Part shown: positions 1,977 through 37,288 of the stretch, in pieces
Layout of the letters: every line of letters begins with the position of its first letter
How positions within the stretch are numbered: the stretch's first letter is position 1
From: a virus
Taxonomy: Duplodnaviria; Caudoviricetes
Length of the DNA: 37,288 bases
Reading direction: 5' to 3' (one strand)
Virus record (IMG/VR): IMGVR_UViG_3300003969_000010
Coordinates: 1 to 37,288 of that record
Position numbers and translations under genes: made by a program
The notes under the pieces: model-generated
Databases searched by the model: none
Told to the model about the DNA's origin: nothing
The model's input: the letters and a program-made list of their open reading frames with translations, nothing else

Positions 1977-2332
1977 GCCGATATCCCCGATGCTGTTACA
2001 AAAAGCGCGTCCACTTGCCCCGCTGTTAGTCCGAGCAGCGCCGCAAGACCTGCAACCGTGGGGGATGCGCGCTCAAAATCTTGGGTCTCAGTCCAAGCCA
2101 GCTTGGTAACCATTGGCGTGTCAGGCAGGGCCATGTACACCTCTACCTGCTCAAGCAGGCCAGCACCCAAAAGCGCGGCTTTTGCTTGAAAACGGCTTAC
2201 ACGTTGTGGCACTGCTGGCGCAAGCGTGGGCGCATCATCCTCAATCACATAAGGCATGCCGGGTTCGTAAAACTCCTCATTCGGACCGAAGGCCACGGCC
2301 ACGCCGTTGACGCGCACTACTTTGAAACTCAT
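1973..2332 (-). CDS. Tail-fibre-associated hypothetical protein
   Basis: VSRFQAKAALL...LF..A pattern typical of the small phage proteins that follow fibre genes; coupled to the fibre gene. Confidence 0.6.
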   Translation of the reverse strand: MSFKVVRVNGVAVAFGPNEEFYEPGMPYVIEDDAPTLAPAVPQRVSRFQAKAALLGAGLLEQVEVYMALPDTPMVTKLAWTETQDFERASPTVAGLAALLGLTAGQVDALFVTASGISA

Positions 2333-3156
2333 GGCAAATACTCCTTAATCGTGATGCGCGAAGCAATGACGCCGTTGTAGAACTGAGCTGCGCTCACGCC
2401 GTTGAATGTGAGTGTCGAGCCTGACGAAGACCCTGCGCGAACGGAATAGGTGCGCGCTGATGTAGACCCTGCCGAAACCAAGTGTTTAAGGGGAACCGAC
2501 ATAAGGGACAGTGAACCCGGCGCGTGCCCTGCTGCTGATAAAGCATTTGCAGTACCAACTTCAAAAAGTGCTACGGTTGTTGTGCTACCAGCTCCGTTTG
2601 ATCCGATCCATTCAACATCTATTTCCAGTGTGCTGCTGGCGTTGGTAGGCGTAAACGCAAGGCTTAGATATTGGTCGCCCTCCGTGATTTGGGGGATGGT
2701 GTTGTCAGCGGGAATGGTTGTTGTGCCGACTGACATAGTGCCAGTTTGGAATGTTTGAATCTGGGCTATTACTCGTCCAGACACCGACAAAGTACCAGCC
2801 GCAAGCGTTAGACCTGCACCGATGCTGATTTCTTCCACTGCTCCCGTGGATGCCGTAGTCCGTCCAAGCATGCGCGCGGTTGTCTGCGTGAGGCCGGATG
2901 CAGTTACAAGACCGGATGCTGCTGCGCCTGTGGGCCGCCCAGTACTCAGCGTCAGCACATCAATCCAAGCCGAGTTGGCCGCGTTGCGTTGCTTCAAGAT
3001 GCCGGCCGTGGTGTCGGCCCACCACATGAAGGCAAAGGTGGTGGCGGGCGCGGTGGCTCCGCTGTTGTTGCTGACCAGGGCTTGCAGTGCGCTGTTCGCG
3101 TCTGCCCTAAACGCGGCGCCACTCGCGTTGGCCAGGCTCATGTCGTTTTGGCTCAT
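2329..3156 (-). CDS. Tail fibre / receptor-binding protein (275 aa)
   Basis: N-terminal FRADANSALQAL...MWWADTTAGILKQRN fibre-anchor pattern; Thr/Ser/Gly-rich; follows the tail tip gene. Confidence 0.7.
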   Translation of the reverse strand: MSQNDMSLANASGAAFRADANSALQALVSNNSGATAPATTFAFMWWADTTAGILKQRNAANSAWIDVLTLSTGRPTGAAASGLVTASGLTQTTARMLGRTTASTGAVEEISIGAGLTLAAGTLSVSGRVIAQIQTFQTGTMSVGTTTIPADNTIPQITEGDQYLSLAFTPTNASSTLEIDVEWIGSNGAGSTTTVALFEVGTANALSAAGHAPGSLSLMSVPLKHLVSAGSTSARTYSVRAGSSSGSTLTFNGVSAAQFYNGVIASRITIKEYLP

Positions 3157-16500: not shown

Positions 16501-18045
16501 CTGCACATAGCCAACAATCCGCACGGAGGAGCCAGCCGCGCACGGGATGGATAACGTGCGCTGACTGGGCGTAGCCAGCTTGGTTGGCCCGATGGCGATG
16601 CTTGAGGTGCTTCGGCGCTTGATGGTGTTCTCGCGCTTGATGCTCATGAACGGGCGGTAAATCTCCTGCACCGTAATGTCACCCCCACGATTGACGAATG
16701 TAAGGGCGTGAGCCGCAATGCAGTTGCCAATGTCGGTAAGCGCCAACGTTTGAGAAGAACTGTCGGTAAGGGTGTTGCTGACAATCAGCCCGTGTGTGTC
16801 TGCACTGCCGTTGGTCGTGGTGCTACCGTTGACGGCGTTGAAGGTGCCCACGTTCATGCGAGCGCCAGCGATAGTGCCGTTGTTGTGCCTGATGCCCACA
16901 AGGTTGGAGTAAATCTCCAAGTCTCTGGCCACTGTACCTGTACCAACAAGGTTGAAGCCCACACCAGACGCACCAGACACAAAGCCATCATTGAACGTCA
17001 CACCAGCATCAGAGCCGCCAATGCCGCCATTTGCCGATCCGCCAGTTGCGCGAAAAATTCCAAAGTCGGAATAAGTCGTGCCTGTTGAGTTCGTGCCAGC
17101 GGCCTGCATCGCGTTGTAATCGTCAATCATCTGCGTGGAGTAGAAGATGTTGCGGTTAAACGTAAACGGGGAACCAACTTCACCGAGGCCGAAGCCGTGC
17201 GTGACGTTGTTGTAAAACGGGCAGTCGTTGATTGTGATATTCAGAGAATTTGGTGAAACGCGCTGTTGGTCACGTATGGAGAGTGTGGCGCGTGATTCAT
17301 AGTCGTCGTTGCGCATTCCCTGAAAAAGCACGTTTGAGAATGTCTTTGCGTTCAGCGTCCCTGAATAGGACAGCTCATTCATCACATGGGCGCGGCCTGA
17401 CTGCGCCGGGGTTCTAAAAACCACGTTGCTGGTGAAATTGCCAACATGCCCACCTATTGCGTGAGCAAAGGCTGCGCTTCCTGTCCATGAAATAACACCT
17501 GTGCCAGTGTTCACGGCAGTCAACACAACTTCGTCAGTGCGCGGTGTTGCGTTGTAGGCCTGCGTAGTGCCAAAAACAATCCGGTCGCCAACTTGCCAGC
17601 CCGTGGCGTTGGCTACCGTGGCAGTGGTAGACGTTCCGCCGGAAGTGGTGATTGCTGTCAGAAGCGTGGTCTTGCGCCTGCGAGAAAACCCGCTGAGAGT
17701 AACAATGGAAGTGCCCCGATAGCCAAGGCGACGATCATCCGTGGTGCCTGCGTTGTTCAGCACAATCTCAGAGGTGATGGACGCGCTACCCGTCATGTTG
17801 ACTGTGTGCGTACCGAAAACCCTTCCACCGTTCTGCAAGGTCAGTCGGTTACTGGCCACGGTGGAAGCCACCAGCGAGCCACCCTCATCCACGGTAAGCG
17901 TGAGGCCCACACAAGATGTGTTGTCTTGCGTGACTACGTGAGGGCTGGCAATTACTACATCGTCAGCAGCGGTGGGAACTCGGGCCAAATCCCAAGTGCC
18001 TGCTGCGCTCCAGTTGCCACTTGCGGCGGAGGTTATGGTTGGCAT
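13510..18045 (-). CDS. Large beta-rich protein (1511 aa), possible virion fibre/adhesin with G8-like N-terminus
   Basis: Long uninterrupted ORF starting 3 nt after the portal stop; SGNWS...TW...VPTAADDVVI start; Thr/Gly/Asn-rich. Confidence 0.75.
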   Translation of the reverse strand: MPTITSAASGNWSAAGTWDLARVPTAADDVVIASPHVVTQDNTSCVGLTLTVDEGGSLVASTVASNRLTLQNGGRVFGTHTVNMTGSASITSEIVLNNAGTTDDRRLGYRGTSIVTLSGFSRRRKTTLLTAITTSGGTSTTATVANATGWQVGDRIVFGTTQAYNATPRTDEVVLTAVNTGTGVISWTGSAAFAHAIGGHVGNFTSNVVFRTPAQSGRAHVMNELSYSGTLNAKTFSNVLFQGMRNDDYESRATLSIRDQQRVSPNSLNITINDCPFYNNVTHGFGLGEVGSPFTFNRNIFYSTQMIDDYNAMQAAGTNSTGTTYSDFGIFRATGGSANGGIGGSDAGVTFNDGFVSGASGVGFNLVGTGTVARDLEIYSNLVGIRHNNGTIAGARMNVGTFNAVNGSTTTNGSADTHGLIVSNTLTDSSSQTLALTDIGNCIAAHALTFVNRGGDITVQEIYRPFMSIKRENTIKRRSTSSIAIGPTKLATPSQRTLSIPCAAGSSVRIVGYVQKSHATNVAATVAITGLGSAWGGFTAANNTSWQLWDTGNVTNSSGADGSFVLTYTATSSSGLTNVVYFDGVPDNPFVTKCRHYGFTFDEANPVRVVNPAIQEAVEATAFAYTGVTINTVTPQITVGAGTANTFRRLYDYTQAWACANLTGPVLLTSTDGNNFALPTTCRLSWPGMGADGTLVGGRLLLAAAGTHTYKLSGTVIEFQATGTYAMGATSFGGTVELANSSGGAVTVQLPAGTSYTPTGGALAALNITVDVPTVTQGLAFTGLVAGSQVVVYTAGSTTNELARTNSSGTTFNWSQAGGSDTTVDYTVMRAGRLPIRVTGLVVNSAVVTTPISQVVDRSYVASTGLNFGTTATVNTGTSRFTVTTATTVQNWYSFMIESWIAQSALRNRAFPISSNGPNSFTLEGWEFSAGVNLLSRDGLRYTASGVATMIYAALYSVDTAAGLQIRYQQTDGGTTTNAATTGQIDQLIQVFGDATHGNFDRRNWLTLKVQADGFDQAETNAIATYGALEDQLYVIGLNPVSNGLPTGAPTVNGSPAITDHGASPVTWNGRPYSITITDSAAGNTGQTLMRWIRYNLGLGGTFQGKPAFNWHDLVQTSGSSFKTIRGPVYGDTGAALKGVRVVTYAGAQHPDFTSHMADDGTTFVPVFPAAATATVLEDTRVQLFNVTTGTELNNAFVTGTAYSFVVSSGVTVGDTVRLRACKLGRIAGEAFGIWTATGLTFLVSQPVDPIYATWGIDGSNIPEFTGDVTGHIYIDANDLDGATTKTRLGAWYSWVLTTGIGITNFYGGVTYLSASEIRINVDIANIMIENVNAATALRFTDTDVRLYRSDGSSIIAPSSYSIHNDYSGVPDYSIVTVGGVNVITGDVSTVLAAIPSAGSNASAVRSNLATELARLDVAVSSVSAGSAPSAAAVATAVRAELSTELARVDATISSRLSSAGYTAPTTPPTSAAIAAAVLNAATATPIASNVEQVNAITIRGTGTDLDPWNP

Positions 18046-24307: not shown

Positions 24308-25344
24308 GCTCCTGCTGTTTCATGCTGCGACTCAAGCGCCAGGCGCACCCGCTCGGTGTAGGCCGAAAACAACTCCTGCACCGGGCTACCGCACCACATG
24401 CCAAGCCCAAGCCGAACCCCCGTGGCCTCGATGCTGGGCCGATCGTGGTCCCACTGCACAGCCCCAGGAGCAGGCACGGAAGACAGCCCAGCCGCATCCG
24501 ACAACTGACCCGCCAAAACCCCGACGGCATAGGCAAACCCCTTGCCCTTGGCTACACTTTTTGCAGCAGCATCCCCAAAGGCAGCAGGGGAAACACCCTT
24601 GTCGATCAACGCCAACAACTCTGGATGACCAACCGCTACACCTGGCAAACCTGCCCTCGCCATCGCTTGCACCGCATGCTGAGCCGGAGACAGCTTTGGG
24701 CTTTCGGCTGTTGAGTTATCCACAGCACGCGCTTGCGATTTGGGTGCTGCACCCCCTCGACCTCGCGGCAGAGATAGGTGCGTGTTGTTTTGAGACGGAG
24801 ACGGAGACGGAGACGGAGACGGAGACGGAGACGGAGACGGAGACGGAGACGGAGACGGAGACGGAGACGGAGCATTGCTACTTTGATGCTGCTTGTCTGC
24901 TACTAGCATGCTAGTAGCATTGCTATTAGCATTGCTGTCAGCATTCCTACTAGCAGCAAACTCGGGAACAAGTCGATCAGCCTCAGCAGGGCCGTGATGG
25001 CGCTTAGCAGCATTCCAGCGAGCCTTAGCACTGCGCATATCAGCACCAGCGGCCCACGGGTTATGCTCATGCCAATCGTGCAAAACATAACGACCATCTA
25101 CCCTGTCCAAAAACCGAACCTCGGTCAAAGCTGCTACAAAAACACCCTCATCGCCCGCCCAATCCGAGGCCAGTTCGATATCTTCCTCAGACATTCCTCC
25201 CAGGTCGCCATCGCTGCGATTTGCGGCAGACCACAAGATCAGACATACCAGATTCCAGGCCGCAGCCTGCCCAAGGCGCTTAATCAGCTTCTTGGTCTTG
25301 GGGTGAGTCGGCAAACCAACCGCCAAGCGTGCGTCAACTGCCAT
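24304..25344 (-). CDS. Replication initiator, lambda O-like
   Basis: HPKTKKL, LHDW.EHNP N-terminal domain, internal iteron-like repeats, SP linker; position after the CII-like gene. Confidence 0.75.
   Translation of the reverse strand: MAVDARLAVGLPTHPKTKKLIKRLGQAAAWNLVCLILWSAANRSDGDLGGMSEEDIELASDWAGDEGVFVAALTEVRFLDRVDGRYVLHDWHEHNPWAAGADMRSAKARWNAAKRHHGPAEADRLVPEFAASRNADSNANSNATSMLVADKQHQSSNAPSPSPSPSPSPSPSPSPSPSPSPSPSQNNTHLSLPRGRGGAAPKSQARAVDNSTAESPKLSPAQHAVQAMARAGLPGVAVGHPELLALIDKGVSPAAFGDAAAKSVAKGKGFAYAVGVLAGQLSDAAGLSSVPAPGAVQWDHDRPSIEATGVRLGLGMWCGSPVQELFSAYTERVRLALESQHETAGA
24792..24872 (+). repeat. Perfect hexamer tandem repeat (GAGACG)x13.5, encoding (PS)13
   Basis: Counted directly: 81 nt with no mismatches. 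Confidence 0.97.
24871..24948. other. Putative replication origin (iterons and palindrome)
   Basis: AGCATTGCT at 24871, 24916, 24928 and AGCATTCCT at 24940 (12-bp period for the last three); perfect 22-bp palindrome at 24898-24919. Confidence 0.6.
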
Positions 25345-26540: not shown

Positions 26541-26756
26541 TCAAACCCCTCGGGCCGGTTCTGGCATGTAAATGTCATTGAACGTCAGCACATGACCCAG
26601 ACTAGCGGCGTAATCGATCAAGCGCCTGGCCACGTCGGGCGGCATGCCCTGCCCACGCTCGTAATGCCCCACGTTACCCTGCGTGCAGCCAACGCCCTTG
26701 GCCAGTTCAGTCTGGGTGACTCCCAGGCGGGTTCGGATTGCTTTGATGTTGCTCAT
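26541..26756 (-). CDS. cro: Cro-like HTH repressor (71 aa)
   Basis: IRTRLGVTQTELAKGVGCTQGNVGHYERG XRE-HTH; divergent from cI. Confidence 0.88.
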   Translation of the reverse strand: MSNIKAIRTRLGVTQTELAKGVGCTQGNVGHYERGQGMPPDVARRLIDYAASLGHVLTFNDIYMPEPARGV

Positions 26757-26762
26757 TACCTC

Positions 26763-26830
26763 ATTATGAGTGGCACTGATAATCAATGTCAACATTGGCG
26801 CTGTTATTTTTTTATAACAGTTGCGGTGAT
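26763..26830. promoter_or_regulatory. OR-like control region: three 15-bp operators and the cro promoter
   Basis: ATGAGTGGCACTGAT (26766), AACATTGGCGCTGTT (26791), AACAGTTGCGGTGAT (26816), spaced 25 bp; minus-strand TTGACA (26792-26787), 18 nt, CATAAT (26768-26763). Confidence 0.75.
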
Positions 26831-26839
26831 GATTTAGAT

Positions 26840-27244
26840 ATGGTCAACAAACCGAGAAAAGCCAAGGTCACACCGGAAACCATTGCGGAGTCGAAGAAAC
26901 TCAAAGAAATCTGGGACGCACAGGAAAAGCGGCCGTCTCAAACAATTTTTGGCGAAACCTATCAAATCGGCAGTCAATCAGCGGTAACGTCGTTTCTGAA
27001 TGGGAAAACGCCGCTGAGCCGAAAGGCGGCCAAAGGTTTCGCCGCTGGCCTTGGATGCAAAGTTTCCGACTTCAGCCAGCGCCTCGCTGCGCTTGAAACA
27101 ACATGGCCTTTTGAGCTTGTAGACCGGGAGCTGTACGACGCACTAAGCCCCGCGCTACAGCACCGCGCCCAGTTGCGCATGAACGACGAGATTAAGCTGA
27201 TTTTTGATGAGCAAGCCATCAGGGCAAACGGAACCAGCAATTGA
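26840..27244 (+). CDS. cI: CI-like repressor, no S24 peptidase domain (134 aa)
   Basis: Lambda-CI-like N-domain (LKEIW...SQ...SQSAVTSFLNG..PL......FA..LGCKVSDFS.RLA) with a short C-terminus. Confidence 0.82.
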   Translation: MVNKPRKAKVTPETIAESKKLKEIWDAQEKRPSQTIFGETYQIGSQSAVTSFLNGKTPLSRKAAKGFAAGLGCKVSDFSQRLAALETTWPFELVDRELYDALSPALQHRAQLRMNDEIKLIFDEQAIRANGTSN

Positions 27245-27328
27245 GGTTGCCCTTTAGACCTTACCTTGCCTGGAGCCGCCCTGTAAATCCCCCAAACGGG
27301 TGAAATTAGTACAACTATGGGAGACAAC

Positions 27329-28114
27329 ATGTGGATTTTTTTGCTGTTTATTGCTGCAATAGTGGCTTGGTTGTTGCTAAAAAAACAAGGCGCACCCATG
27401 CCTCAAGCAACCCCCAAGATCGCCACCAGTTATTCGGCACCACAACACGAAGCCCAAGACAAAGACGCTTGGGAGGGCGCGTTCTATGACGTTGTTACCC
27501 AGCACAGTATCAACAAAAGCGTTCGTCTGCGCTACATTGATACGCATGACAACGAGAGTGAGCGCGTCGTTGACATCCGGGCTTTCGAGCCGGACCGGCG
27601 CGATGGGTTAGTCATTGCGTATTGCCACCTAAGAAATGCCACGCGCACCTTTCGGTTTGACCGCATGAAACAGGTAATTGACATGGAGACCGGGGAGATC
27701 ATCCCCGACCTTCAAGCGCAACTCAATGCCGAATGGAAGGCTTCACCTGAGCCCATACTTGATCAGTTGTACCGCGAGCACCACGACGTGCTCAAGTTAA
27801 TGCTCTACATGGCCAAGGCGGATGGATCGGTGCGGTCTGCAGAAATTGGTGTGATTGCGCGCTATTGCCAAGACATTACAGGCGATGCCCGCATTACGGC
27901 TGAATTGATAAAGAATTTGCTCAAGACGGTGGATGTGGTAACGATGACCACATTTACACGGGTGTACAACAAGCTGCGAAGAGAGCGGCCTGACGATGCA
28001 ATTAGAGCGGCGGATGCTTGCCGGGCCATTGTTGCCACGCAAAAAACTATTCACCCCAACGAGCAAGGGGCGCTTGATATTCTGGACAAGCCACTACCAC
28101 GCACCCCAGCATAA
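27329..28114 (+). CDS. Membrane-anchored protein with WYL-like and TerB-like domains
   Basis: N-terminal TM (WIFLLFIAAIVAWLLL); LRYID...SERVV...AYCHLRNATRTFRFDRM (WYL-like); LYMAKADG.V.SAE (TerB-like); GGGAGA RBS. Confidence 0.75.
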   Translation: MWIFLLFIAAIVAWLLLKKQGAPMPQATPKIATSYSAPQHEAQDKDAWEGAFYDVVTQHSINKSVRLRYIDTHDNESERVVDIRAFEPDRRDGLVIAYCHLRNATRTFRFDRMKQVIDMETGEIIPDLQAQLNAEWKASPEPILDQLYREHHDVLKLMLYMAKADGSVRSAEIGVIARYCQDITGDARITAELIKNLLKTVDVVTMTTFTRVYNKLRRERPDDAIRAADACRAIVATQKTIHPNEQGALDILDKPLPRTPA

Positions 28115-28123
28115 GGAGCCACC

Positions 28124-28387
28124 ATGGGCGCACTGCACTTTCTAGACCTTGATCCATTGCCTGACGCTCTGCGATCGGGCACAGTTCACCACCTGGAGTT
28201 GTATGAGACAGGGGGCGAACTGTTTATCAAGGTATCGCTAGCGGCACCTACAGGACATGACCAAGCCTACTGCCAAGACCAAACACCTTACACCGCACCA
28301 ATCACAGCATCAATGCGGGTAACCACCACCCAATTGGTGCAGATTGAGCGTGCGATGGCTGAATTACGCGCCCGTATAAGCGCTTAG
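28124..28387 (+). CDS. Hypothetical protein (87 aa)
   Basis: AAGGAG RBS; follows the WYL/TerB-like gene in the same orientation. Confidence 0.65.
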   Translation: MGALHFLDLDPLPDALRSGTVHHLELYETGGELFIKVSLAAPTGHDQAYCQDQTPYTAPITASMRVTTTQLVQIERAMAELRARISA

Positions 28388-28915
28388 CCAATGGCGCGCT
28401 GCCAGTGCATAGACTGCCATGTCTAGCTGCGGCGCGTCTAGGAGATGGCTAGGAAAGCAAGAGCTTAGCTCTGCCTGCATGGCTGCCACATCAACAAAAT
28501 ACACGGTAAACGACTGAGGGTGCACTACACCACCTTCATTAACGTCAACTAAGCGGGCGTGCATGGTTTCTTTACTTACAACCCCGTTAGCGAACCCTTT
28601 AACTGCAAGCAACCTCGGAAGTCCGGCGTTTTGATGCTGCATTACAAACCTGCAAACCTCGTGGGAAAAGTGGCCACCGCTGTCAATAGCTGCCGCTGAC
28701 ACTGGCATGCACGTAACCCCGTCCACACACACGGGTCTGGAGAGCTCGAACAACAACCGTTCCCACGGTATGGGCTGACGCGTATCAAAAAGCAAACGCA
28801 CACTACCAACACACATCGCGCCACTGCCGCCAAAAACCCAACAGCAAACATCTATATGGCCATGGCCCACTTCAACACCCGCGCAAACGCGCAGTTCTTT
28901 GCCAACAAATTTCAT
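28364..28915 (-). CDS. Stand-alone degenerate paralog of the GpA terminase nuclease domain (183 aa; alternative start 28936)
   Basis: Collinear motif matches to the C-terminal domain of terL in this window (see findings). Confidence 0.8.
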   Translation of the reverse strand: MKFVGKELRVCAGVEVGHGHIDVCCWVFGGSGAMCVGSVRLLFDTRQPIPWERLLFELSRPVCVDGVTCMPVSAAAIDSGGHFSHEVCRFVMQHQNAGLPRLLAVKGFANGVVSKETMHARLVDVNEGGVVHPQSFTVYFVDVAAMQAELSSCFPSHLLDAPQLDMAVYALAARHWLSAYTGA

Positions 28916-28961
28916 AAAACCCCCGTCCGGCGACATGCCGGTATAAATATTTTAATCAAAT

Positions 28962-29004
28962 ATCAGTGGCACTGTTGACATAAAATATAATTGCCACTAA
29001 TAAT
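28962..29004 (+). promoter_or_regulatory. OL/PL-like region: two operators and an early promoter
   Basis: ATCAGTGGCACTGTT (28962) and ATAATTGCCACTAAT (28987), 25 bp apart, matching the OR consensus; TTGACA at 28975-28980 with TAATAAT at 28998-29004. Confidence 0.75.
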
Positions 29005-29044
29005 TCACTCCAACCCGCCACATTTCGGCGGAAAGGAGTGAAAA

Positions 29045-29542
29045 GTGCAAACCACCACAATTCAGCGCAGCGAGGTCGAAGCGCTTCTCTACCGGGCGGC
29101 CACTGGCCTACTGGGTAACTTAGCTTTTGAGGCCGAGCGCAAGCACGACACTTACGACTTTTGGCAGGGCTATGCCAAAGCCCTGCGTGATCTGCAGCGC
29201 GGCGCTGGCCAAGGTCTGGCAGACAAAGATGCAGCGCTAGGCGGCTATCAGGGCGGTGGCATATTCAGGGCTGCAGCCCGTGTCTTGGGTAATGACCTCT
29301 ACGATTTGCCCCGTGCTGAGGTTGCGCAGCGCATAGCAAACGCTGGAATCAAGTTCTCCTTGCATGCGGTGTCCGATTGCGATGAGGCTGCCGCCTTGGT
29401 GGTCATAGACGGTGCAGTCGCCGCCATCGATTTGCACGACGAACATCCCATTTCGTTGGTTGATGCGGACGATAGTTCCCTTGACCAGCATGCTTTCTCT
29501 CCCGTTGATGCGGCCATTGTGGCGCAAGGCGGTGCAGCGTGA
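29045..29542 (+). CDS. First gene of early operon, hypothetical
   Basis: AAGGAG RBS, GTG start, GTGA coupling to the next gene; the 3' half overlaps an antisense ORF. Confidence 0.55.
   Translation: MQTTTIQRSEVEALLYRAATGLLGNLAFEAERKHDTYDFWQGYAKALRDLQRGAGQGLADKDAALGGYQGGGIFRAAARVLGNDLYDLPRAEVAQRIANAGIKFSLHAVSDCDEAAALVVIDGAVAAIDLHDEHPISLVDADDSSLDQHAFSPVDAAIVAQGGAA
29237..29491 (-). CDS. Hypothetical beta-rich protein (84 aa), nested antisense
   Basis: GGAGAG RBS before ATG 29491; MLVKGTIVRINQRNGMFVVQIDGGD... reads like a small OB-fold-type protein. Confidence 0.55.
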   Translation of the reverse strand: MLVKGTIVRINQRNGMFVVQIDGGDCTVYDHQGGSLIAIGHRMQGELDSSVCYALRNLSTGQIVEVITQDTGCSPEYATALIAA

Positions 29543-29961
29543 AGTTCTCAACCCTCCCACCGTTTCACGCGACTGGCAAGGTCCAAGTCTTCAAGCATGG
29601 GGACACCTCGCCAACCACCACCTTAGTGGTGGGCTGCTACGCCACTGATGCTTGGGCCATCGGCAGCGCCATGGAGCGCGCCGCCAAGTGGGCTTTGCAG
29701 TGTGTAGGCGCACCAGCGGCAGAGCTGGACAAGCTCTACTTTGAATACATCGGTACCGACACCCTGGTGGCGCTGGAGCCGCGTGGCGCCAAGCCCCGCT
29801 TTGATGGGAAGGTGGAAGCCTTCTTTGACTCGGGCCCAGACATGCCCAAGCGCGCCACCCTCATCCGCCAGCGCCGCCTGCTGCCCATCGAGCACCACGA
29901 CGCCCGCGCCATCTACGCCAAGCCAGCACCGGCAAAGCAAGAACCTGTGGTGGCCGCATGA
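29539..29961 (+). CDS. Hypothetical early protein
   Basis: Start/stop overlaps with both neighbours. Confidence 0.65.
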   Translation: MKFSTLPPFHATGKVQVFKHGDTSPTTTLVVGCYATDAWAIGSAMERAAKWALQCVGAPAAELDKLYFEYIGTDTLVALEPRGAKPRFDGKVEAFFDSGPDMPKRATLIRQRRLLPIEHHDARAIYAKPAPAKQEPVVAA

Positions 29962-30257
29962 GCCGCCCGATAGTTGACACCATCACAAGCTGGGCACTGG
30001 CGCTGCTCATCATCGGCATATACGCCGCCATGCAGCACCTAGACGGCCCCGCCGACCACCGCGCCGAGTGGGCAGCATCTGCAGCGGCGCAAGACGCTAT
30101 CAAAAACGAAGCTACACGCGCACGGTTTGCCAAGGCTGCAGCCCAAGTTTGTGGCAATGCCGACTTTGTGGAAGTGGACGCCACCACCATCGAATGCATT
30201 CCGCGCAAGGGCTCCAGCAAGGGCAGCGCAGTGCAAGTGGCGGGGGTAGCACCATGA
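29958..30257 (+). CDS. Hypothetical membrane protein
   Basis: N-terminal hydrophobic segment; ATGA coupling. Confidence 0.65.
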   Translation: MSRPIVDTITSWALALLIIGIYAAMQHLDGPADHRAEWAASAAAQDAIKNEATRARFAKAAAQVCGNADFVEVDATTIECIPRKGSSKGSAVQVAGVAP

Positions 30258-30490
30258 CCTGCATGCAAACCCGCTGTGACCAGCTTGGCATATGCCATTG
30301 CCCCGCACCTGTGCGCCAGCACCTAGCCCTGCACGCCGACGACGCCGAGCCGGGCCGCGACGTACTGCCTGACTACATGAGCAGTTGGGAATGGATAGCC
30401 GACCTAGGCCGCACCGTAGTTGCTGCGGTGGCCGTGGTTGCGGTGGTGGGCAGCGCCTTGGGTTACTTGTACGGGCGGTGGCCACTATGA
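30254..30490 (+). CDS. Hypothetical protein, Cys-rich N-terminus and C-terminal TM
   Basis: MTCMQTRCDQLGICHC...; ATGA coupling at both ends. Confidence 0.6.
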   Translation: MTCMQTRCDQLGICHCPAPVRQHLALHADDAEPGRDVLPDYMSSWEWIADLGRTVVAAVAVVAVVGSALGYLYGRWPL

Positions 30491-30684
30491 GCGACCACAA
30501 CATCAAAAGCATCGAGCAGATTGAGCGCGAAGCCCGCGCCGCTGCCAAGCAATACACCAACCTTGACGAAGCCTGCCCCTACAGCTTCTACACCGAAGCC
30601 GGGCGCACGTTTAAGCGCGCATTTCAGCAAGAGCGGCTGGCCATGGGCAGCAGCAAAACCACCGCAACCAAGGCCACCACATGA
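30487..30684 (+). CDS. Hypothetical early protein
   Basis: MSDHNIKSIEQIEREARAAA...ACPY; ATGA coupling. Confidence 0.65.
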   Translation: MSDHNIKSIEQIEREARAAAKQYTNLDEACPYSFYTEAGRTFKRAFQQERLAMGSSKTTATKATT

Positions 30685-31307
30685 GCTGGATACTAACCAG
30701 CGAAGCCCGCGAGCACCAGCTCGCCGGCGGCGCAGCCACCCACCCCGACAACCTGCCCGGCATACGCGAGATAGCGCACAGCCTGGCGCAAATCAACCGT
30801 TACACCGGCCATGCCAGCCGACCTTACAGCGTAGCCGAGCACTCGCTACTTGTGTGCATGCTGGCCAAGGCCGATGGCGCCCCCACCGAGCTGGTGCTGG
30901 CAGCTCTGATGCACGATGCGCACGAGTGCATTACTGGCGACACATCGAGCCCAGTGAAAGAGGCGCTGGGCGCCGTGTGGCACGAATTTGAATGGATGCA
31001 CCAGCGCCACCTGCTGGAAATGTATGAGTTGCTAGATACCTTTGTGCAGCACAAAGCAGATATCAAGAAATGGGATTTGGTAGCACTGGCCACCGAGCGG
31101 CGCGACCTGATGTGTTTTGACGCAGCGCTGCACCGCCCATGGCCGGTGATTGACACCCCCGGCCGCCAGCACCTGCCCGCCAGCGTCAACCTAAACACAC
31201 CCCAGCGCCGCATGAACACCTGGGAGACTTGGGCGTGGCTGTTTGAGAACGAAGCAAGCCTGCTGATGGAGCGGCGCATGGCAGCAAAGATGAAAGCTGC
31301 AGCATGA
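30681..31307 (+). CDS. HD-domain phosphohydrolase (YfbR/YfdR-like deoxynucleotidase family)
   Basis: IAHSLAQINRYTGH, YSVAEHS, LMHDAHE..TGD..SPVK, D...LATERRDL. Confidence 0.88.
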   Translation: MSWILTSEAREHQLAGGAATHPDNLPGIREIAHSLAQINRYTGHASRPYSVAEHSLLVCMLAKADGAPTELVLAALMHDAHECITGDTSSPVKEALGAVWHEFEWMHQRHLLEMYELLDTFVQHKADIKKWDLVALATERRDLMCFDAALHRPWPVIDTPGRQHLPASVNLNTPQRRMNTWETWAWLFENEASLLMERRMAAKMKAAA

Positions 31308-31540
31308 GCCAGCGCCCCATCATCCAGCCCGCGCCATGGCCCGGAGGCAAGGCCCGCAGCATGGGCGGTGCCTTTGATGAGCTTTACCGTGAGCGCGCAC
31401 CACTGCGTGCAAGCAAGGCCAAGAAGCGCAACGCCAACCAAAGCCACCAAGCCAAGGTGCTGCGCGATCTAGACAACAGCGCCCCTGCGTTCAACACCAC
31501 GCAAGCTTCACAAAACCGCAATAGGAGGATAAAGGCATGA
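31304..31540 (+). CDS. Hypothetical basic protein
   Basis: ATGA coupling at both ends. Confidence 0.55.
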   Translation: MSQRPIIQPAPWPGGKARSMGGAFDELYRERAPLRASKAKKRNANQSHQAKVLRDLDNSAPAFNTTQASQNRNRRIKA

Positions 31541-31770
31541 CCGAGCGCATCATCAACCTGGACATCAACGAGAAGGGCGCATGGCGCCGCATCACCAGCT
31601 TCGACCTGGACATGTTTGAAGACGGCGACCTGGAGCACTGTGCACACAGCCTGCTTGAGCTCAGCCAAAACAAAAACATCAAGGCCCGCCTGATCATTCC
31701 GGGCGACACCGCGCCGCTGATGTACTGGAGCCATGGCGATGGCTGGCAGGAATGGAGGGCTGCAGCGTGA
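31537..31770 (+). CDS. Hypothetical protein
   Basis: AGGAGG upstream; coupled start/stop. Confidence 0.65.
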   Translation: MTERIINLDINEKGAWRRITSFDLDMFEDGDLEHCAHSLLELSQNKNIKARLIIPGDTAPLMYWSHGDGWQEWRAAA

Positions 31771-32099
31771 AGATTACCGTGAAGCCCGTTGAAATGCTTT
31801 TGATTGAAGACCTGCCACGGCTTGACCCGGTACGTGTAGTTCTTGAGAACTTTGAGCCAGGCAAGGGCCGAATCATCATCGTCTGCTTTGACGCAGCATG
31901 GGTTGGCTACTGGGGCGCAATGGGTGGTCGGTCGGTGCAGGACTTCTTTGTAGGCTGCGATGCAGGATACCTAGCCTCAAATCTTTTAAGCGCCGGCAGT
32001 CTATCCAGAGCAAAGCGACACGAAACCTACTTAGTACGAATCATCGCGACTGTGCAAGAAGCGTTGCGCGAGCGTGCAAAGCAAGAAGGTGCGGCATGA
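31767..32099 (+). CDS. Phage hypothetical protein
   Basis: GTGA coupling; LDPVRV.LEN..PG.GRIII.C...AW..YWGAMG pattern recalled from phage early regions. Confidence 0.7.
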   Translation: MKITVKPVEMLLIEDLPRLDPVRVVLENFEPGKGRIIIVCFDAAWVGYWGAMGGRSVQDFFVGCDAGYLASNLLSAGSLSRAKRHETYLVRIIATVQEALRERAKQEGAA

Positions 32100-32467
32100 C
32101 GACATCCCCCTTCATCCACATGGCCTGCAGCCTCACCCTGCAGCCCGTTCGCACCTGGAAGGCCGAGGCCGATGCCATCGAGCCGGGCCTTAAGCGCACC
32201 GAGCGCATCCGCCGCCTGCTCAAGGCCACTGGCGCCGCCATGACCGACGCCGAGATTGCATGGGACATGGCCGACCACTTCCCCAACTTCGGCACGCACC
32301 TGGTGTGGCTGCTGCTCAAGCACGACATATCCAAAGGCCGCGTGCGCCAGATCAGGCCGGGCCTCTACCGCTGGAACGACGAATACGACACGGCCGAGGC
32401 CGCCGCCGTGCGCGACGCAATCAAGCTACTCAAAACCCACGGCTACCGAGTGAAAGCACCCACATGA
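32096..32467 (+). CDS. Hypothetical protein, possible winged HTH
   Basis: IRRLLK....AMT..EIA...GRV; ATGA coupling. Confidence 0.6.
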   Translation: MTTSPFIHMACSLTLQPVRTWKAEADAIEPGLKRTERIRRLLKATGAAMTDAEIAWDMADHFPNFGTHLVWLLLKHDISKGRVRQIRPGLYRWNDEYDTAEAAAVRDAIKLLKTHGYRVKAPT

Positions 32468-32964
32468 ACCACCGCCAACACCGCGCCCCGAGCGCACAAA
32501 AACGCCAATCCATCAACCTGGTGCGCAACCCGGTATGGCGCTGCCTGTCCAAGGCGCCGCTAGACCAGGCCAAGCAGACCAGCGTGCAGCTTGCAGGCGT
32601 CAGCGCGTTTGCAGAAATCATCCACGGCCATGGCAACCTGCACCATGTAGACGACTTGGCCATGGTCTGCAACGTCAGCACCATGCTATGCGAGGCAGGC
32701 CACCAGGCAGAGAGTGAGCTGAAGGTGCGCATGGCGCACGACGCACTGGTGCGCATGACGCAACGCCACGTGCAGCAAGGCAAAAGCCTGGGCTTTGACG
32801 GCCCCGGCGCACAAGCCGTGCGCGACCTGCTCCAGATCCACGACACCCAAACACTTACGGCAGGCACTGTGGCCGTAGCCGACGCCATTCTGGCCGTGCA
32901 CGCCCGCATTGATGCGGGGCACGTGGACCGCATCAGCACATCCATTCACTCCACCACCAACTGA
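32464..32964 (+). CDS. Phage hypothetical protein
   Basis: ATGA coupling; helical protein with GFDGPG.QAVR.LL.IHD.Q motif. Confidence 0.65.
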   Translation: MNHRQHRAPSAQKRQSINLVRNPVWRCLSKAPLDQAKQTSVQLAGVSAFAEIIHGHGNLHHVDDLAMVCNVSTMLCEAGHQAESELKVRMAHDALVRMTQRHVQQGKSLGFDGPGAQAVRDLLQIHDTQTLTAGTVAVADAILAVHARIDAGHVDRISTSIHSTTN

Positions 32965-32973
32965 AAGACACCC

Positions 32974-33573
32974 ATGAGCCACAACCTCACAATTCCAGTG
33001 ACCGCCTCCCTGAAGCTGGAGCTGGACAGTCCATCCAACGAGCTGCTGGCCCTGCTGCAGCGCATGCAAGGCGGCAATGCCGCGCCAGCCGCAGAGCCAC
33101 TGACCGGACAACAAACACCACCAGCGCACGGCGAATACTGGACCAACCAAGGCGGCCACTACATCTGCACCCTGCCCGCACTGATGGGCCTGCCCGCGCG
33201 GCACCTGATTGCCGGCAAAGAGCAAACCAAAGCCACATTTGGCCCCTACGAAGAAGTTACCGGGTGCAGCAGCCATATCGACGGCCCTGCCAACACCAAG
33301 GCATTGCTTGCCCACGGCGGCCACCCTGCAGCCCAATGGGCCGCAGCGCACACCGCAGACGGCCATAGCGACTTTCACCTACCCGCCAAGCTGGACCTGG
33401 TGATGGCCCACATCTGCGCCCCCCAGCTCTTTGACAAAGAGGGCTACTACTGGACCAGCACCCAGCTCAGCCGCGGCAGCGCCTTTGTTCAGGATTTTGA
33501 GCTCGGCAGCTCAGGTTGGAGCTACGAGGGCTACGAGCACAGGGTTCGAGCCTTCCGCTGGATTCCACTTTAA
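32974..33573 (+). CDS. DGR target protein 1 (DUF1566/CLec-fold-like, 199 aa)
   Basis: DG.ANT, GHSDFHLP, YWTSTQ, RVRAFR motifs; VR1 at the C-terminus. Confidence 0.9.
   Translation: MSHNLTIPVTASLKLELDSPSNELLALLQRMQGGNAAPAAEPLTGQQTPPAHGEYWTNQGGHYICTLPALMGLPARHLIAGKEQTKATFGPYEEVTGCSSHIDGPANTKALLAHGGHPAAQWAAAHTADGHSDFHLPAKLDLVMAHICAPQLFDKEGYYWTSTQLSRGSAFVQDFELGSSGWSYEGYEHRVRAFRWIPL
33460..33558 (+). repeat. Variable repeat VR1
   Basis: 99-bp ungapped match to TR; 15 mismatches, all opposite TR adenines. Confidence 0.96.
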
Positions 33574-33596
33574 CGCTTGACCACTTCACCCCTTAC

Positions 33597-33611
33597 ACCG
33601 GCGCAGCCGGT
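33597..33611 (+). other. Post-VR1 hairpin ACCGGC-GCA-GCCGGT (putative homing element)
   Basis: 6-bp perfect stem with a 3-nt GCA loop; identical copy after VR2; not found after TR. Confidence 0.8.
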
Positions 33612-33641
33612 TCGTTTTTAATTTTAACCAGGAGCAACTTT

Positions 33642-34157
33642 ATGAAACCTCACCCCATCACCCTCCCGGCCTTTGGAGCCCTTATTCCAGGCCAAGGCGG
33701 CTACTTTGCCGGCATTCTGCGCGGCCCCACTGTGGACGGTATTGAACAGCCGCCGTATGCCCTGCTGGTGTCAGACACCACCAAAGGCGAGTTTGAGGAT
33801 GTGCAGTGGGGCGAGTACGGCAAAAGCCTAGATGGCGCCATGCACCGCACAGACGGCAAGGCCAACACCAAAGCCATGGCGCAAGCGAAATGCCCTGCCG
33901 CCCTCAAGGTGCGCGACCTCACCATAGACGGCCACAGCGACTGGTATCTGCCAGCCCTAGGCGAAATGAACACCGCCCACGCCAACGTGCCCGAACTTTT
34001 TAGCACCAGTGGGTGGTACTGGACTAGCACCCAGCTCAGCCGCGGCTTCGCCTTTGTTCAGGATTTTGAGTACGGCGGCTCAAGTTGGAACCTCAAGGAC
34101 AACGAGCGCAGGGTTCGAGCCTTCCGCCGGGTTCAACTTGAACTCTTGAACGCTTAA
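33642..34157 (+). CDS. DGR target protein 2 (DUF1566/CLec-fold-like, 171 aa)
   Basis: AGGAG RBS before ATG 33642; paralog of target 1 (GQGGYF, DGKANT, GHSDWYLP, YWTSTQ, RVRAFR); VR2 at the C-terminus. Confidence 0.9.
   Translation: MKPHPITLPAFGALIPGQGGYFAGILRGPTVDGIEQPPYALLVSDTTKGEFEDVQWGEYGKSLDGAMHRTDGKANTKAMAQAKCPAALKVRDLTIDGHSDWYLPALGEMNTAHANVPELFSTSGWYWTSTQLSRGFAFVQDFEYGGSSWNLKDNERRVRAFRRVQLELLNA
34029..34127 (+). repeat. Variable repeat VR2
   Basis: 99-bp ungapped match to TR; 13 mismatches, all opposite TR adenines. Confidence 0.96.
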
Positions 34158-34167
34158 ACCCTTTAAC

Positions 34168-34182
34168 ACCGGCGCAGCCGGT
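34168..34182 (+). other. Post-VR2 hairpin ACCGGC-GCA-GCCGGT
   Basis: Identical to 33597-33611. Confidence 0.8.
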
Positions 34183-34202
34183 TCGCTCGATTTTTTGACA
34201 CC

Positions 34203-34577
34203 ATGGCAATCTACTCCGAACTCCCAATTTACAAGCACGGCTGCGACCTGTTGGCGCTGGCGCTGGATGTCCAAGTCCAGATGCCTCGCGCCTTTAAGCG
34301 CACCCTCGGTGAAAAAGTTCACGCCTTGTGCGTGGACATGCTGGAGCAGATGGCCATGGCCAACGCATCGCGCGGACTGGACAGGCTGGAGCAAATTGAC
34401 AAGCTGCTGCAACACCTGCGCGCCGCCACCGCCATGCTGCGTGTGAGCCACGACAAGCGGCTTATCTCACCCAAGCTATGGGCGGCATCCGTTGAGCTGC
34501 TGGACGCCGTTGGCGCACAGGCAGGCGGGTGGCGCAAGCAGACTTTGGCAACTCTTTCCGCAGCGCCTGCTGCATGA
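34203..34577 (+). CDS. avd: DGR accessory variability determinant (four-helix bundle)
   Basis: 124 aa, LPIYK...L, MPR.FK.TLGEK, C-terminal GGWRK; located between the targets and TR/RT. Confidence 0.85.
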   Translation: MAIYSELPIYKHGCDLLALALDVQVQMPRAFKRTLGEKVHALCVDMLEQMAMANASRGLDRLEQIDKLLQHLRAATAMLRVSHDKRLISPKLWAASVELLDAVGAQAGGWRKQTLATLSAAPAA

Positions 34578-35998
34578 CGGTCAAGGCCATCATGCCCGTG
34601 CGTTTAATGAATCCGGTCGGGCCGCTGCAGCCGTCCTTGTTTGACGACTGCACCGCCATGCGCACCACGGAGACCGGCGAGCCCCAGCAGCTCGCGCTTT
34701 GGTCCGGCGCAGTTTCCGGGCCCATCGGCGCAAGCCTTGAGCCCGGCGATGTAGATTGCCCGAACGAACCCAGAACAGCCGCAACAACGCCTTTGTTCAG
34801 GATTTTGAGAACGGCAACTCAAATTGGAACAACAAGGACAACGAGCACAGGGTTCGAGCCTTCCGCGGATTCATCCGCCCCGCCCAGCTGGGGTGGGGCA
34901 CCCTTTACTATTGAGCAACTGGTGCAAGCCTGGCTGGACTGTAGACGCAACAAACGCCAAAGCGATAGCGCCCAAGCTTTTGAGGCCAATGCCGAGGCCA
35001 ACCTGTGCGCACTGCGCAACGAGCTGCTAGACGGCACCTACAGCCCAGGCCAGAGCACCTGCTTTGTGGTTACACGGCCCAAGGTACGCGAAGTGTGGGC
35101 GGCCGACTTTAGAGACCGCATCGTGCACCATTTGCTCTACAACCACATTAGCCCGCGCTTCTACGCCAGCTTTGTGCATACCAGTTGTGCATGCATACCC
35201 GGCCGGGGCACGCTGTATGCAGCACAGCAGCTTGAGCACGGCGTGCGCTCCATCACCCAAAACTGGAGCCAACCCGCCCACTATTTGAAGATGGACTTGT
35301 CCAACTTCTTTGTGGCGATTGACAAAGCCACCTTGCGTGCGCAGCTGGCAAAGAAAGTGACAGAACCATGGTGGATGGCACTCACCGAAACCATACTGAT
35401 GCACGATCCACGCAGCCATGTGCAAGTGCGCAGCAGCGCCGATCTGCTGGCACAGGTGCCAGCACACAAGAGCCTATTTAACGCACCAAACGCCACTGGC
35501 TTGCCCATTGGGAACCTGAGTAGCCAGTTTTTTGCCAACGTGCACCTGGACGCGCTAGACCAGTTTTGCAAACACCAGATAAGGGCGCGGCACTACGCTC
35601 GCTACGTGGACGACTTTGTGCTGCTGCACCAGAGCCCACAGTGGCTAAACGCTGCGCTCGAACGCATTACAGCCTGGCTGCCAGAACACTTGGGCGCACA
35701 GATAAACCCACGTAAAACGATTTTGCAGCCCATAGCCCGCGGCGTGGACTTTGTTGGCCATGTCATCAAACCATGGCGCCGCACCACCCGACCGCGCGCC
35801 GTACGCACCGCCTTGCAGCGCCTGAGCTCCATGCCTGCCGAAGATGTATTTACAGCGGGAAATAGCTACCTTGGGCTGCTAACCCAAGCCACACACAGCC
35901 AACAAGACCGCGCCACCGTAGCCAAAGTGCTACTGGGGCGCGGCCACGCGGTTAACCATGAATTGACCAAGATTTACAGGAAGAAGACTAAAAAATGA
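34574..35998 (+). CDS. DGR reverse transcriptase (start uncertain)
   Basis: PK.REVWAADFRDRIVHH, YLKMDLSNFF, GLPIGNLSSQFFAN, RYVDDFV, GVDFVG. ATG at 34574 overlaps the avd stop; the conserved core begins near 34900. Confidence 0.93.
   Translation: MTVKAIMPVRLMNPVGPLQPSLFDDCTAMRTTETGEPQQLALWSGAVSGPIGASLEPGDVDCPNEPRTAATTPLFRILRTATQIGTTRTTSTGFEPSADSSAPPSWGGAPFTIEQLVQAWLDCRRNKRQSDSAQAFEANAEANLCALRNELLDGTYSPGQSTCFVVTRPKVREVWAADFRDRIVHHLLYNHISPRFYASFVHTSCACIPGRGTLYAAQQLEHGVRSITQNWSQPAHYLKMDLSNFFVAIDKATLRAQLAKKVTEPWWMALTETILMHDPRSHVQVRSSADLLAQVPAHKSLFNAPNATGLPIGNLSSQFFANVHLDALDQFCKHQIRARHYARYVDDFVLLHQSPQWLNAALERITAWLPEHLGAQINPRKTILQPIARGVDFVGHVIKPWRRTTRPRAVRTALQRLSSMPAEDVFTAGNSYLGLLTQATHSQQDRATVAKVLLGRGHAVNHELTKIYRKKTKK
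34768..34866 (+). ncRNA. DGR template repeat (TR)
   Basis: Adenine-rich master copy: 8 AAC and 1 AAT codons in the VR frame, 32 adenines in 99 nt. Confidence 0.95.
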
Positions 35999-36189
35999 CC
36001 ACAACAGAAAAAATACTCGTCCCCGCTGCCGAAGCGGCACAAATGTTAAGCATGGGCAAATCGACATTCTGGCGCGAGGTCAAGAAAAAGACCGTACCAG
36101 AGCCAATCAAGATCGGAGGGCTTACGCGCTGGCGGGTTGCTGACTTGATGCGTATTGCCCAGCCAGCCACTGAGCCCACCACGCCATAA
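35995..36189 (+). CDS. xis: Excisionase / AlpA-family DNA-binding protein
   Basis: 64 aa, EAAQMLSMGKSTFWR..K....PEPIKIGGLTRW; adjacent to the integrase. Confidence 0.85.
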   Translation: MTTTEKILVPAAEAAQMLSMGKSTFWREVKKKTVPEPIKIGGLTRWRVADLMRIAQPATEPTTP

Positions 36190-37288
36190 GCTCCCGGCGC
36201 TGGGGCAGGTACTCAGCCCGGTTGTAAGCGGCTCGCACGGCGTCAGTTTCCTTGTGGGATAGCTGGCGCTCGATCACATCATGGGCAAAGCCGGATTGCT
36301 CATTCAGCACACTGGATGCCAGCGCCCGGAAGCCGTGGGCCGTCATCTTTCCCCGATAGCCCAGCCGGTAGAGGGCAAACAGCAGCGTGTTTTCTGAAAC
36401 CGGGTGGCCGGGCTTGAGGGGCGAGGCCATCACAAACTCACTTTCGCCAGTGACCAGGCGAAGCTGGCCAAGAATCGCGCGGGCAGGCTCTGACAGCGGC
36501 ACAACATGAGGCAGGCGCAGCTTCATGCGCTCGGCGGGTATCACCCAGATCGCGCCATCTTCCTTTATTTCTGCCCAGCGCATACCGCGAAGCTCACCGG
36601 GGCGCACAAAGACGTGGGCCAATAGCTGCAACCCCAGCCGTGTCACTGGTTCGTCGTAGTCGTCAATGGCGCGAAGCAGCGCCCCCGCCTCTGATGGGTG
36701 AATGCTTGCCATGGGCTTTTTGGTTTTGCGGGCCTGAAGCACGCGCACCAGGTTCGAAGCTGCGTGGGACTTGATGATTCCAGCATCGAGCGCGTAGTCA
36801 AAAACCGCAGTAATGCGCCCCGCCACCCTGTGGGCAGTCTCCACCTTGCCGCCGTTTTGCGCCTTCTGCACAGCGGCCACCAGCTCGGTGCGTTCAATCG
36901 AATCTATGGGCATCTTGCCAAGCGTTGGGAATGCAAACCGCTCCAGCGTGTTTTCCACCTGTATCTGGTGCTTTCCGTTAGACAGGGTTGGCAGGTGCTT
37001 TTTTAGCCAAACCCGAGCGATAGCCTCAAACGTCGGTGCAATAGCCTTTGAGGGCGTGGCGGTGGATGGCTCGCGAGCAGCGGTGTGGGCCTTGCGGGCG
37101 TCTGCCAGGCTCAAGTCAGGCCAGCGCCCGTAGGTGCGCGTGGCTTGTTTTCCATCGCGCAGATAGTTGGCCCGCCAGCTCTTGCCGCCCGCCGGGGTGA
37201 TGAACAAATACAGCCCCGCGCTGTCGGCCAGCTTGTAGCCTTTTTCCCGTGGTTTGGCAGTTTCCACCGCCCGCACTGTCAGAGTCAT
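36122..37288 (-). CDS. int: Tyrosine integrase, P4-like with arm-binding domain
   Basis: YKLADSAGLYL..TP.G.KSW arm domain; catalytic R (VRPGELR), HGFR, LSH, AYNR. Confidence 0.95.
   Translation of the reverse strand: MTLTVRAVETAKPREKGYKLADSAGLYLFITPAGGKSWRANYLRDGKQATRTYGRWPDLSLADARKAHTAAREPSTATPSKAIAPTFEAIARVWLKKHLPTLSNGKHQIQVENTLERFAFPTLGKMPIDSIERTELVAAVQKAQNGGKVETAHRVAGRITAVFDYALDAGIIKSHAASNLVRVLQARKTKKPMASIHPSEAGALLRAIDDYDEPVTRLGLQLLAHVFVRPGELRGMRWAEIKEDGAIWVIPAERMKLRLPHVVPLSEPARAILGQLRLVTGESEFVMASPLKPGHPVSENTLLFALYRLGYRGKMTAHGFRALASSVLNEQSGFAHDVIERQLSHKETDAVRAAYNRAEYLPQRRELMAWWAQWLAGQYASSQQPASA

Follow-up and report, generated by a model that had tools for sequence, protein, structure and literature searches.

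In the model established for phage BPP-1, a diversity-generating retroelement (DGR) acts through the accessory protein Avd and a reverse transcriptase (RT), which reverse-transcribe a template repeat (TR) with errors at adenines. The cDNA then replaces a variable repeat (VR), which is identified by a hairpin and by the 3' end of the repeat. To our knowledge, receptor switching by a tail fibre is the only function of a phage DGR shown by experiment. Here we describe a DGR in the 37,288-nt DNA of the tailed-phage record IMGVR_UViG_3300003969_000010 (this whole stretch is called the window). Its two targets, T1 and T2, are encoded in the early arm of a temperate phage and are probably early proteins that do not enter the virion. 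What is new here is that RT-less phages, namely D3 and the PA5oct group of lytic jumbo phages, possess this small gene too, with tips that appear to be DGR-written. The large clade of such early genes suggests that hypermutation has a second, intracellular use.

The closest described elements are the B1 elements (TG-TG-AVD-TR-RT) of Wu 2018 with CLec2 variable repeats and d1 (DUF1566) targets, which share with the window DGR the gene order, two short DUF1566 targets, the A-only pattern and a stem-loop after the VR (PMC5758913, in part). Among them are elements of Polaromonas sp. CF318, Burkholderia cenocepacia H111 and Pseudomonas M47T1 and GM67 (PMC5758913, Table S1, in part), and the Polaromonas contig NZ_AKIV01000010.1 is our locus L116, the target of which is 65% identical to T1. 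According to the same survey 13% of DGRs have two targets and about half of category d consists of DUF1566 alone; the accessible part of the paper gives no function for the B1/CLec2/d1 targets and does not place the cassette in an early arm (PMC5758913). The Burkholderia phage Magia (MT701587) has an RT 61% identical to that of the window and the short lectin-fold targets gp47 and gp57 (PMC7883833). As in the window, the targets are flanked by the repressor region on one side and the integrase on the other, in the company of RecT and nuclease genes, but, unlike in the window, one of the annotated targets is found at a distance of 7 kb. The authors proposed a role in host range or adaptation and did not discuss localisation (PMC7883833). 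In Magia, the repressor region is directly followed by one of the remote targets.

Similar to the window DGR, clade 3 of Roux 2021 with the target cluster PC_00009 is proteobacterial and often prophage-borne, and the accessible part of that study rates the PC_00009 targets as non-structural or unknown (PMC8144416). Judging from host group and target type, the window DGR would belong to this clade and cluster. Thus, the rarity implied by the original prediction does not hold: with the B1 catalogue, Magia and the phage class of non-structural or unknown targets at hand, the cassette is an ordinary, catalogued and recently active DGR class. BPP-1 (mtd-avd-TR-brt) shares with it the adenine-specific retrohoming, Avd, a C-terminal VR in a C-type lectin (CLec) fold and the hairpin after the VR (PMC5758913, in part, and general knowledge). 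However, Mtd is a single tail-fibre adhesin with a CLec1 VR, whereas the two proteins encoded in the window are of the CLec2 type, measure 171-199 aa and have no fibre part. No match of Mtd to the targets was found in the profile comparison or in the list of fold matches. A tail-fibre or Mtd target in the tail module, as in tropism switching of the BPP-1 type, is not found for the window DGR. Few DGR targets have been characterised (PMC6199706 and PMC10907252, both in part), and phage targets are reported to lack signal peptides, with roles given as unknown in the accessible part of that paper (PMC6199706). In the openly readable literature (subscription papers were thinly covered), we found no paper that states an early placement or an intracellular or anti-defence role, nor one that describes PA5oct or D3 alleles as DGR-written.

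It is practically certain that the window contains a genuine DGR. The TR (99 nt with 32 adenines; 34768..34866) and the two variable repeats VR1 (33460..33558) and VR2 (34029..34127) are all on the plus strand, and repeat comparison reproduced the coordinates and counts given earlier: VR1 and VR2 differ from the TR at 15 and 13 positions, respectively, and all 28 mismatches are at TR adenines. The probability of finding every mismatch at one of the 32 adenines by chance is 2.6e-9 for VR1 and 5.6e-8 for VR2, and the non-A positions of the TR are identical in each of the two VRs (67/67). As previously noted, most mismatches (25 of 28) are in AAY codons; they alter 11 residues in VR1 and 8 in VR2, and the TR adenines allow approximately 4e17 amino-acid variants per target. 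Since an adenine-masked scan of both strands revealed no third VR in the whole window (the next best site matched at 37/67 positions), no tail gene is targeted, in agreement with the original prediction. Of the 9 sites mutated in both VRs, 6 have the same base in each, including four at the 5' end (33466-33476 and 34035-34045). This suggests conversion between the VRs or short, 3'-biased retrohoming tracts.

The genes are arranged in the order T1-T2-avd-RT-15 RNA-TR-RT on one strand, followed by xis and a convergent integrase gene. The avd gene (34203..34577, +, 124 aa) matches PF22296 with 46 bits (cut-off 40) and NF033474 with 50.7 bits, which is under the cut-off of 80. The RT open reading frame (ORF; 34574..35998, +), which has 474 aa when counted from the ATG overlapping the avd stop, contains no stop codon and matches phrog_1423 (E 7e-109) and RVT_1, with YVDD and GNxxSQ motifs. 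Directly 5' of the TR, the Rfam structured RNA RT-15 was detected (34561..34770, +; 162 bits, gathering threshold 82). RT-15 corresponds to the 5' leader of the DGR template RNA; phage Cruim01 (L097) carries an RT-15 annotation too, and in the literature covered we found no paper linking RT-15 to DGRs. A hairpin scan revealed a GC hairpin with a GCA loop 3' of VR1 (33597..33611, +), followed by a T run, and an identical GCA-loop hairpin 3' of VR2 (34168..34182, +), but no hairpin of this kind 3' of the TR in the window. The hairpin at 33597..33611 is likely a cis element for target recognition, and its T run makes it terminator-like as well. In relatives, a hairpin of at least 5 bp follows 72 of 148 VRs as compared to 139 of 740 shuffles, and GNA-loop hairpins follow 19 of 148 VRs, but only 1 of 740 shuffles and none of 68 TRs.

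The element has retrohomed, since the VRs of its relative X1 differ at TR adenines and share a change of the X1 TR. Over 2201 bp, this relative (a 39.5-kb contig) shows 51 substitutions in comparison to the window, at least 27 of which are within the 198 VR bases (at least 13 in VR1 and 14 in VR2). Among these VR substitutions, 25 are at TR adenines, while the other two are T-to-C changes at TR position 27, and the same change is present in X1's own TR and in both of its VRs. This is the expected trace of a TR copied into both VRs. A lack of VR variation among relatives had been named as a sign of an inactive element; the 25 adenine sites at which X1 differs show past activity instead. In a second relative, X2, VR2 has 18 differences, of which 15 concern adenines, two concern other, non-A sites and one is located at position 27; the X2 contig leaves the TR uncovered, and a third contig, X3, leaves the VRs uncovered. 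Mixed calls in the X21 reads, which at first sight resembled VR variation within a sample, were VR1 reads mapped onto VR2 at a depth of approximately 4x and were discarded.

The cassette is located in the early arm of a lambda-like temperate genome, which is cut at the integrase start. According to Pfam and PHROG annotation, the head, tail and lysis genes are on the minus strand. A cro-like gene (26541-26795, -) is divergent from a gene for a helix-turn-helix (HTH) protein without peptidase domain (26840..27244, +), which is likely a CI-like repressor. A sigma70-like promoter (TTGACA-18-AATAAT, 28975..29004, +, 11/12 match) stands at the head of a pL-type early arm of 16 co-oriented genes (29045..36189, +), which mostly overlap by 4 nt at their stop and start codons and include genes for an HD phosphohydrolase and the DGR. 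Thus, the placement of the targets in an early operon was confirmed. The last gene of the arm encodes an excisionase-like HTH protein (xis, 35995..36189, +) and is followed by the convergent gene of a tyrosine integrase (36122..37288, -), the start codon of which is the window end. The motif AGTGGCA at 26769, 28965 and 28992 is common to the early promoter and the divergent cro/cI promoter region, and these sites are likely operators. Because the promoter scan, weak by itself, gave no more sites than shuffles (4 as compared to 3.8 expected), the proposed repressor control of the early promoter rests on the gene layout. The distance of approximately 30 kb to the fibre gene (2329-3156), which the original prediction had emphasised, is correct for the linear prophage, but in the circular form after excision only approximately 5.5 kb, to which any trimmed ends have to be added, would separate the fibre gene from VR2. 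The two would be on opposite, converging strands, with the integrase between them. The host is likely a comamonad, since the closest named T1 homologs are found in Rhodoferax, Polaromonas and Variovorax.

T1 (32974..33573, +, 199 aa) consists of a low-confidence N-terminal extension of approximately 45 aa and a CLec (Lcl_C/DUF1566-like) domain, while T2 (33642..34157, +, 171 aa, pLDDT 94.5) is a stand-alone CLec domain. The two proteins are 44% identical and belong to phrog_4245, and their matches to the Pfam family Lcl_C/DUF1566 (PF07603) are under the curated cut-off of 34.9 bits (T1 20.9 bits, E 5e-4; T2 28.6 bits, E 2e-6). AlphaFold predicts a CLec fold with the VR at the C-terminus for both (mean pLDDT 88 and 94). 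With the T2 model, which was the only one used in the Foldseek search, the best match in the PDB was the C-terminal domain of Legionella Lcl (8q4e; E 7e-5, TM 0.53 by query), and a Bacteroides pilin tip (4eps) matched with E 1.5e-4 and TM 0.52 by query; in the profile search, 8q4e matched with E 5e-8. These two proteins share the fold but are exported to the surface, whereas T1 and T2 have no export signal: a crude hydropathy scan revealed no hydrophobic stretch and no lipobox in them, and neither contains a virion anchor or fibre domain. The description of the targets as small CLec/DUF1566-like paralogs without signal peptide or transmembrane segment was therefore correct, with Pfam scores under the cut-off. 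Matches in the ESM Atlas were restricted to DUF1566 and hypothetical clusters. Prediction of a T1-T2 complex gave a score of 0.00, which we do not use for or against binding, and an apparent T1-T2 fusion (P0002, 367 aa) was not used either, because it has a scrambled junction and a single member and is likely a frameshift artefact.

To see how widespread the layout is, we collected 93 IMG/VR loci, of which 74 were retained after removal of 3 without RT and 16 near-duplicates. In the 67 loci with at least 2 kb upstream, two targets were found in 44, three in 13, four in 3 and one in 3, so that 60 of them have 2-4 small targets; no target was detected in 4 (L003, L013, L014 and L033, where no VR was found; the RT of L013 and L014 is apparently split). 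The 142 targets are 114-333 aa long (median 167), their N-termini vary freely, and VR mismatches across these loci are at A in 1834 cases and elsewhere in 29. Of the 40 loci with 4 kb or more on the downstream side, 36 have an integrase or excisionase gene there; of the 51 with 8 kb upstream, 26 have a CI-like gene in the same orientation. ParB-like, RecE, Erf, methylase and HD genes recur in the neighbourhood, for which 67 representatives of the 102 clusters found in at least two loci were annotated, while singletons were left out. Among these recurring neighbours, no target was an annotated tail or head gene in the 74 loci, and tail or baseplate genes of L054, L075 and L064 are past the integrase on the opposite strand. 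Extra targets 3-7 kb upstream, still in the early arm, were observed in L002, L035, L045, L073, L079, L088 and L096. Nine records of cultured phages have an RT of at least 60% identity and two more are at 59.8%, while plasmids gave one weak match among 72,556 records. At 50% identity the target family comprises 885 clusters (cut-off E 1e-30 against the target profile), long multi-domain proteins included.

Homologs of the targets are also present in other phages. Haboob carries a DGR of this kind, and its first target differs from the Haboob TR at 13 sites, all of them adenines. In comparison to this target, 12 genes for proteins of 162-163 aa in other phages (gp104 of PA5oct, L094:3851-4342; the gene of D3, L095:5854-6342; and those of L098-L105, L106 and L107) have a scaffold that is 86-96% identical (86% for gp104), while identity in the VR is 55-67%. 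Differences of their VRs from the Haboob TR are at adenines in 15 of 16 cases for PA5oct, 17 of 17 for FBPa42 and 15 of 19 for D3; the weakest case is 20 of 33. Nine of the 12 genes belong to lytic jumbo phages (PA5oct group), and the VRs of these nine fall into four allele groups. The gene has a GC content of 0.56-0.59 in the jumbo phages, and in PA5oct it is part of a stretch of approximately 0.55 between flanks of 0.25-0.34. Of the 12 genomes, 8 were tested for an RT (among them 5 of the 9 jumbo phages), and none was found in any of these 8, while those of Haboob and Magia were found as controls. Since 10 of the 12 genes are without the hairpin after the VR, they look like frozen, captured DGR alleles.

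These genes bear on the location of the targets. The PA5oct protein gp104 is related to the T2 family with an HHalign probability of 99.8%. It belongs to the gp34-gp105 block, most genes of which are transcribed early, and is absent from the list of 93 PA5oct virion proteins, although proteins of 8-20 kDa were detected (PMC7318152, in part). Furthermore, in the close homolog P0225 an N-terminal beta-clamp-like domain is fused to the CLec target-family domain, and another close homolog is fused to DUF6378. Thus, the part of the original prediction that placed the targets inside the cell rather than in the virion is indirectly supported by gp104 and by fusions to cytoplasmic domains, and is probable for T1 and T2 themselves. 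In D3, orf68 is just downstream of the repressor, in an arm with a Lar-like gene. The value of the gene appears to be independent of lysogeny, because nine lytic jumbo phages retain it.

The explanation we favour, with slightly less than even confidence, is that the early-arm DGR diversifies two non-virion cytoplasmic binders, the most likely ligands of which are variable proteins of defence or immunity, either from the host or from its resident prophages. Targets and mutator would be co-expressed from the repressor-controlled early promoter, and T1 and T2 would be made in the cytoplasm upon infection or induction. By analogy with BPP-1, Avd-RT would copy the TR with adenine errors and the cDNA would replace each VR. 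The original prediction had proposed combinatorial diversity by hetero-oligomers. Because target counts run from 1 to 4 in relatives and PA5oct and D3 have a single copy, an obligate heterodimer is unlikely, and each target would rather work and be selected by itself. The benefit would fall in lytic growth, since lytic phages retain the gene. The ligand could be a strain-variable defence protein of the host or an immunity protein of a resident prophage, because the turnover of alleles suggests strain-to-strain variation of the ligand within one host species. Taken by itself, counter-defence is a possible job of T1 and T2, to be regarded with reserve. Several points weigh against this explanation. 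All evidence fits defence proteins and other cytoplasmic ligands alike, and the PADLOC profiles, like those of NCBIfam, gave no match for T1 or T2. gp104 is only distantly related to T2 (approximately 34% identity over 112 aa), 'most' and not all genes of its block are early (PMC7318152, in part), and virion mass spectrometry can miss low-copy proteins; the proteomics of MIJ3, in which only 4 major proteins were named, is uninformative. Moreover, the raw-read depth of approximately 4x is too shallow to reveal ongoing variation.

Alternatively, the early cytoplasmic binders could be aimed at housekeeping machinery, for host takeover or as internal host-range adaptors, or at proteins of co-infecting phages. 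Every result on localisation fits this equally, the beta-clamp-like fusion is in line with it, and the PA5oct early genes were characterised as genes of the host-to-phage transition (PMC7318152, in part). We consider it unlikely, however, since conserved housekeeping ligands would have little need of approximately 1e17 variants and of 2-4 paralogs diversified one by one, and since the allele turnover in jumbo phages of one host species would argue for a strain-variable ligand. That the targets are low-copy virion accessories encoded early, such as head or tail decorations or secondary adhesins, with the DGR acting as on Mtd in BPP-1, seems quite unlikely, although three genes of the PA5oct early block do encode virion proteins (PMC7318152, in part) and the accessible part of Roux 2021 leaves room for it in the non-structural classes (PMC8144416). 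The fold also speaks for virion accessories and thereby against our explanation, as the best solved structural relatives are surface adhesins and the same CLec domain occurs in long, fibre-like phage proteins with FN3, Ig, laminin G, collagen or peptidase S74 domains. On the other hand, the targets have no anchor domain and their N-termini are free to vary, the related loci have no target among the tail and head genes annotated for recurring neighbours, gp104 is not on the virion list, and a near-identical gene is present in D3 and in a jumbo phage. D3 is presumably a siphophage and the PA5oct-type jumbo phage a myophage, with different particles.

A service to the lysogen, or release at lysis, as anti-phage sensors, soluble lectins or receptor decoys is improbable. 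Cytoplasmic CLec sensors have been proposed in bacteria (PMC10907252, in part), the fold is Lcl-like, and a WYL-domain gene is present in the same prophage, but no effector domain is fused or consistently adjacent, the targets are downstream of a promoter that is likely repressed, and lytic phages keep the gene. Least probable is a selfish or decayed retroelement with targets of little function: while no RT is present within 10 kb at 16 of the 40 loci of full-length genomes that hold a target homolog, and 4 of 67 related loci have no VR, the ORFs are intact, the scaffold is conserved, retrohoming was recent and RT-less lytic phages retain the gene. Returning to cytoplasmic binders of defence proteins, one may speculate, as a somewhat unlikely generalisation, that a large clade of proteobacterial temperate phages uses the DGR as an adaptive counter-immune system with antibody-like early binders against strain-variable defences, and that RT-less phages, lytic jumbo phages among them, harvest selected alleles from it by recombination or carry alleles that prophage DGRs rewrite in trans. 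The question is testable, since phages of a laboratory host are in culture that have either the element itself (Haboob and Magia) or a single DGR-written allele (D3 orf68, PA5oct gp104 and Paride).

The RT is likely translated through its own template RNA, because its frame is kept open and no start codon exists between the TR and the RT core in the window. From the ATG at 34574, which overlaps the avd stop, the frame passes through the RT-15 RNA and the TR (34574-34903), unlike in BPP-1. Reduction of 123 loci at 85% RT identity left 80 non-redundant ones, and in 60 of them no stop codon interrupts the RT frame between the end of avd and the core, as compared to 2 and 0 for the other frames and 6% for shuffles. 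ATGA overlaps are in the RT frame in 38 of 40 cases, across many spacer lengths. A TR overlapping the annotated RT ORF defines DiGReF group 3 (PMC3521204, in part), while the TR is described as not translated in Wu 2018 (PMC5758913, in part).

Outside the early arm, three further regions were observed. Between the portal and major capsid genes, a Thr/Gly/Ala-rich ORF of 1511 aa (13510-18045, -), for which Pfam, PHROG, NCBIfam and PADLOC gave no match, possibly encodes a virion appendage or adhesin. A stretch of lower GC content (27317-28936; GC 0.515 for 26740-29044), which separates the HTH gene from the early promoter, encodes a membrane-anchored WYL/TerB protein and, on the opposite strand, a stand-alone terminase-nuclease-like ORF; these may be moron or defence genes. 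Finally, the replication initiation gene holds a hexamer tandem repeat of GAGACG units (24780-24878), a possible origin or length-variable tract.

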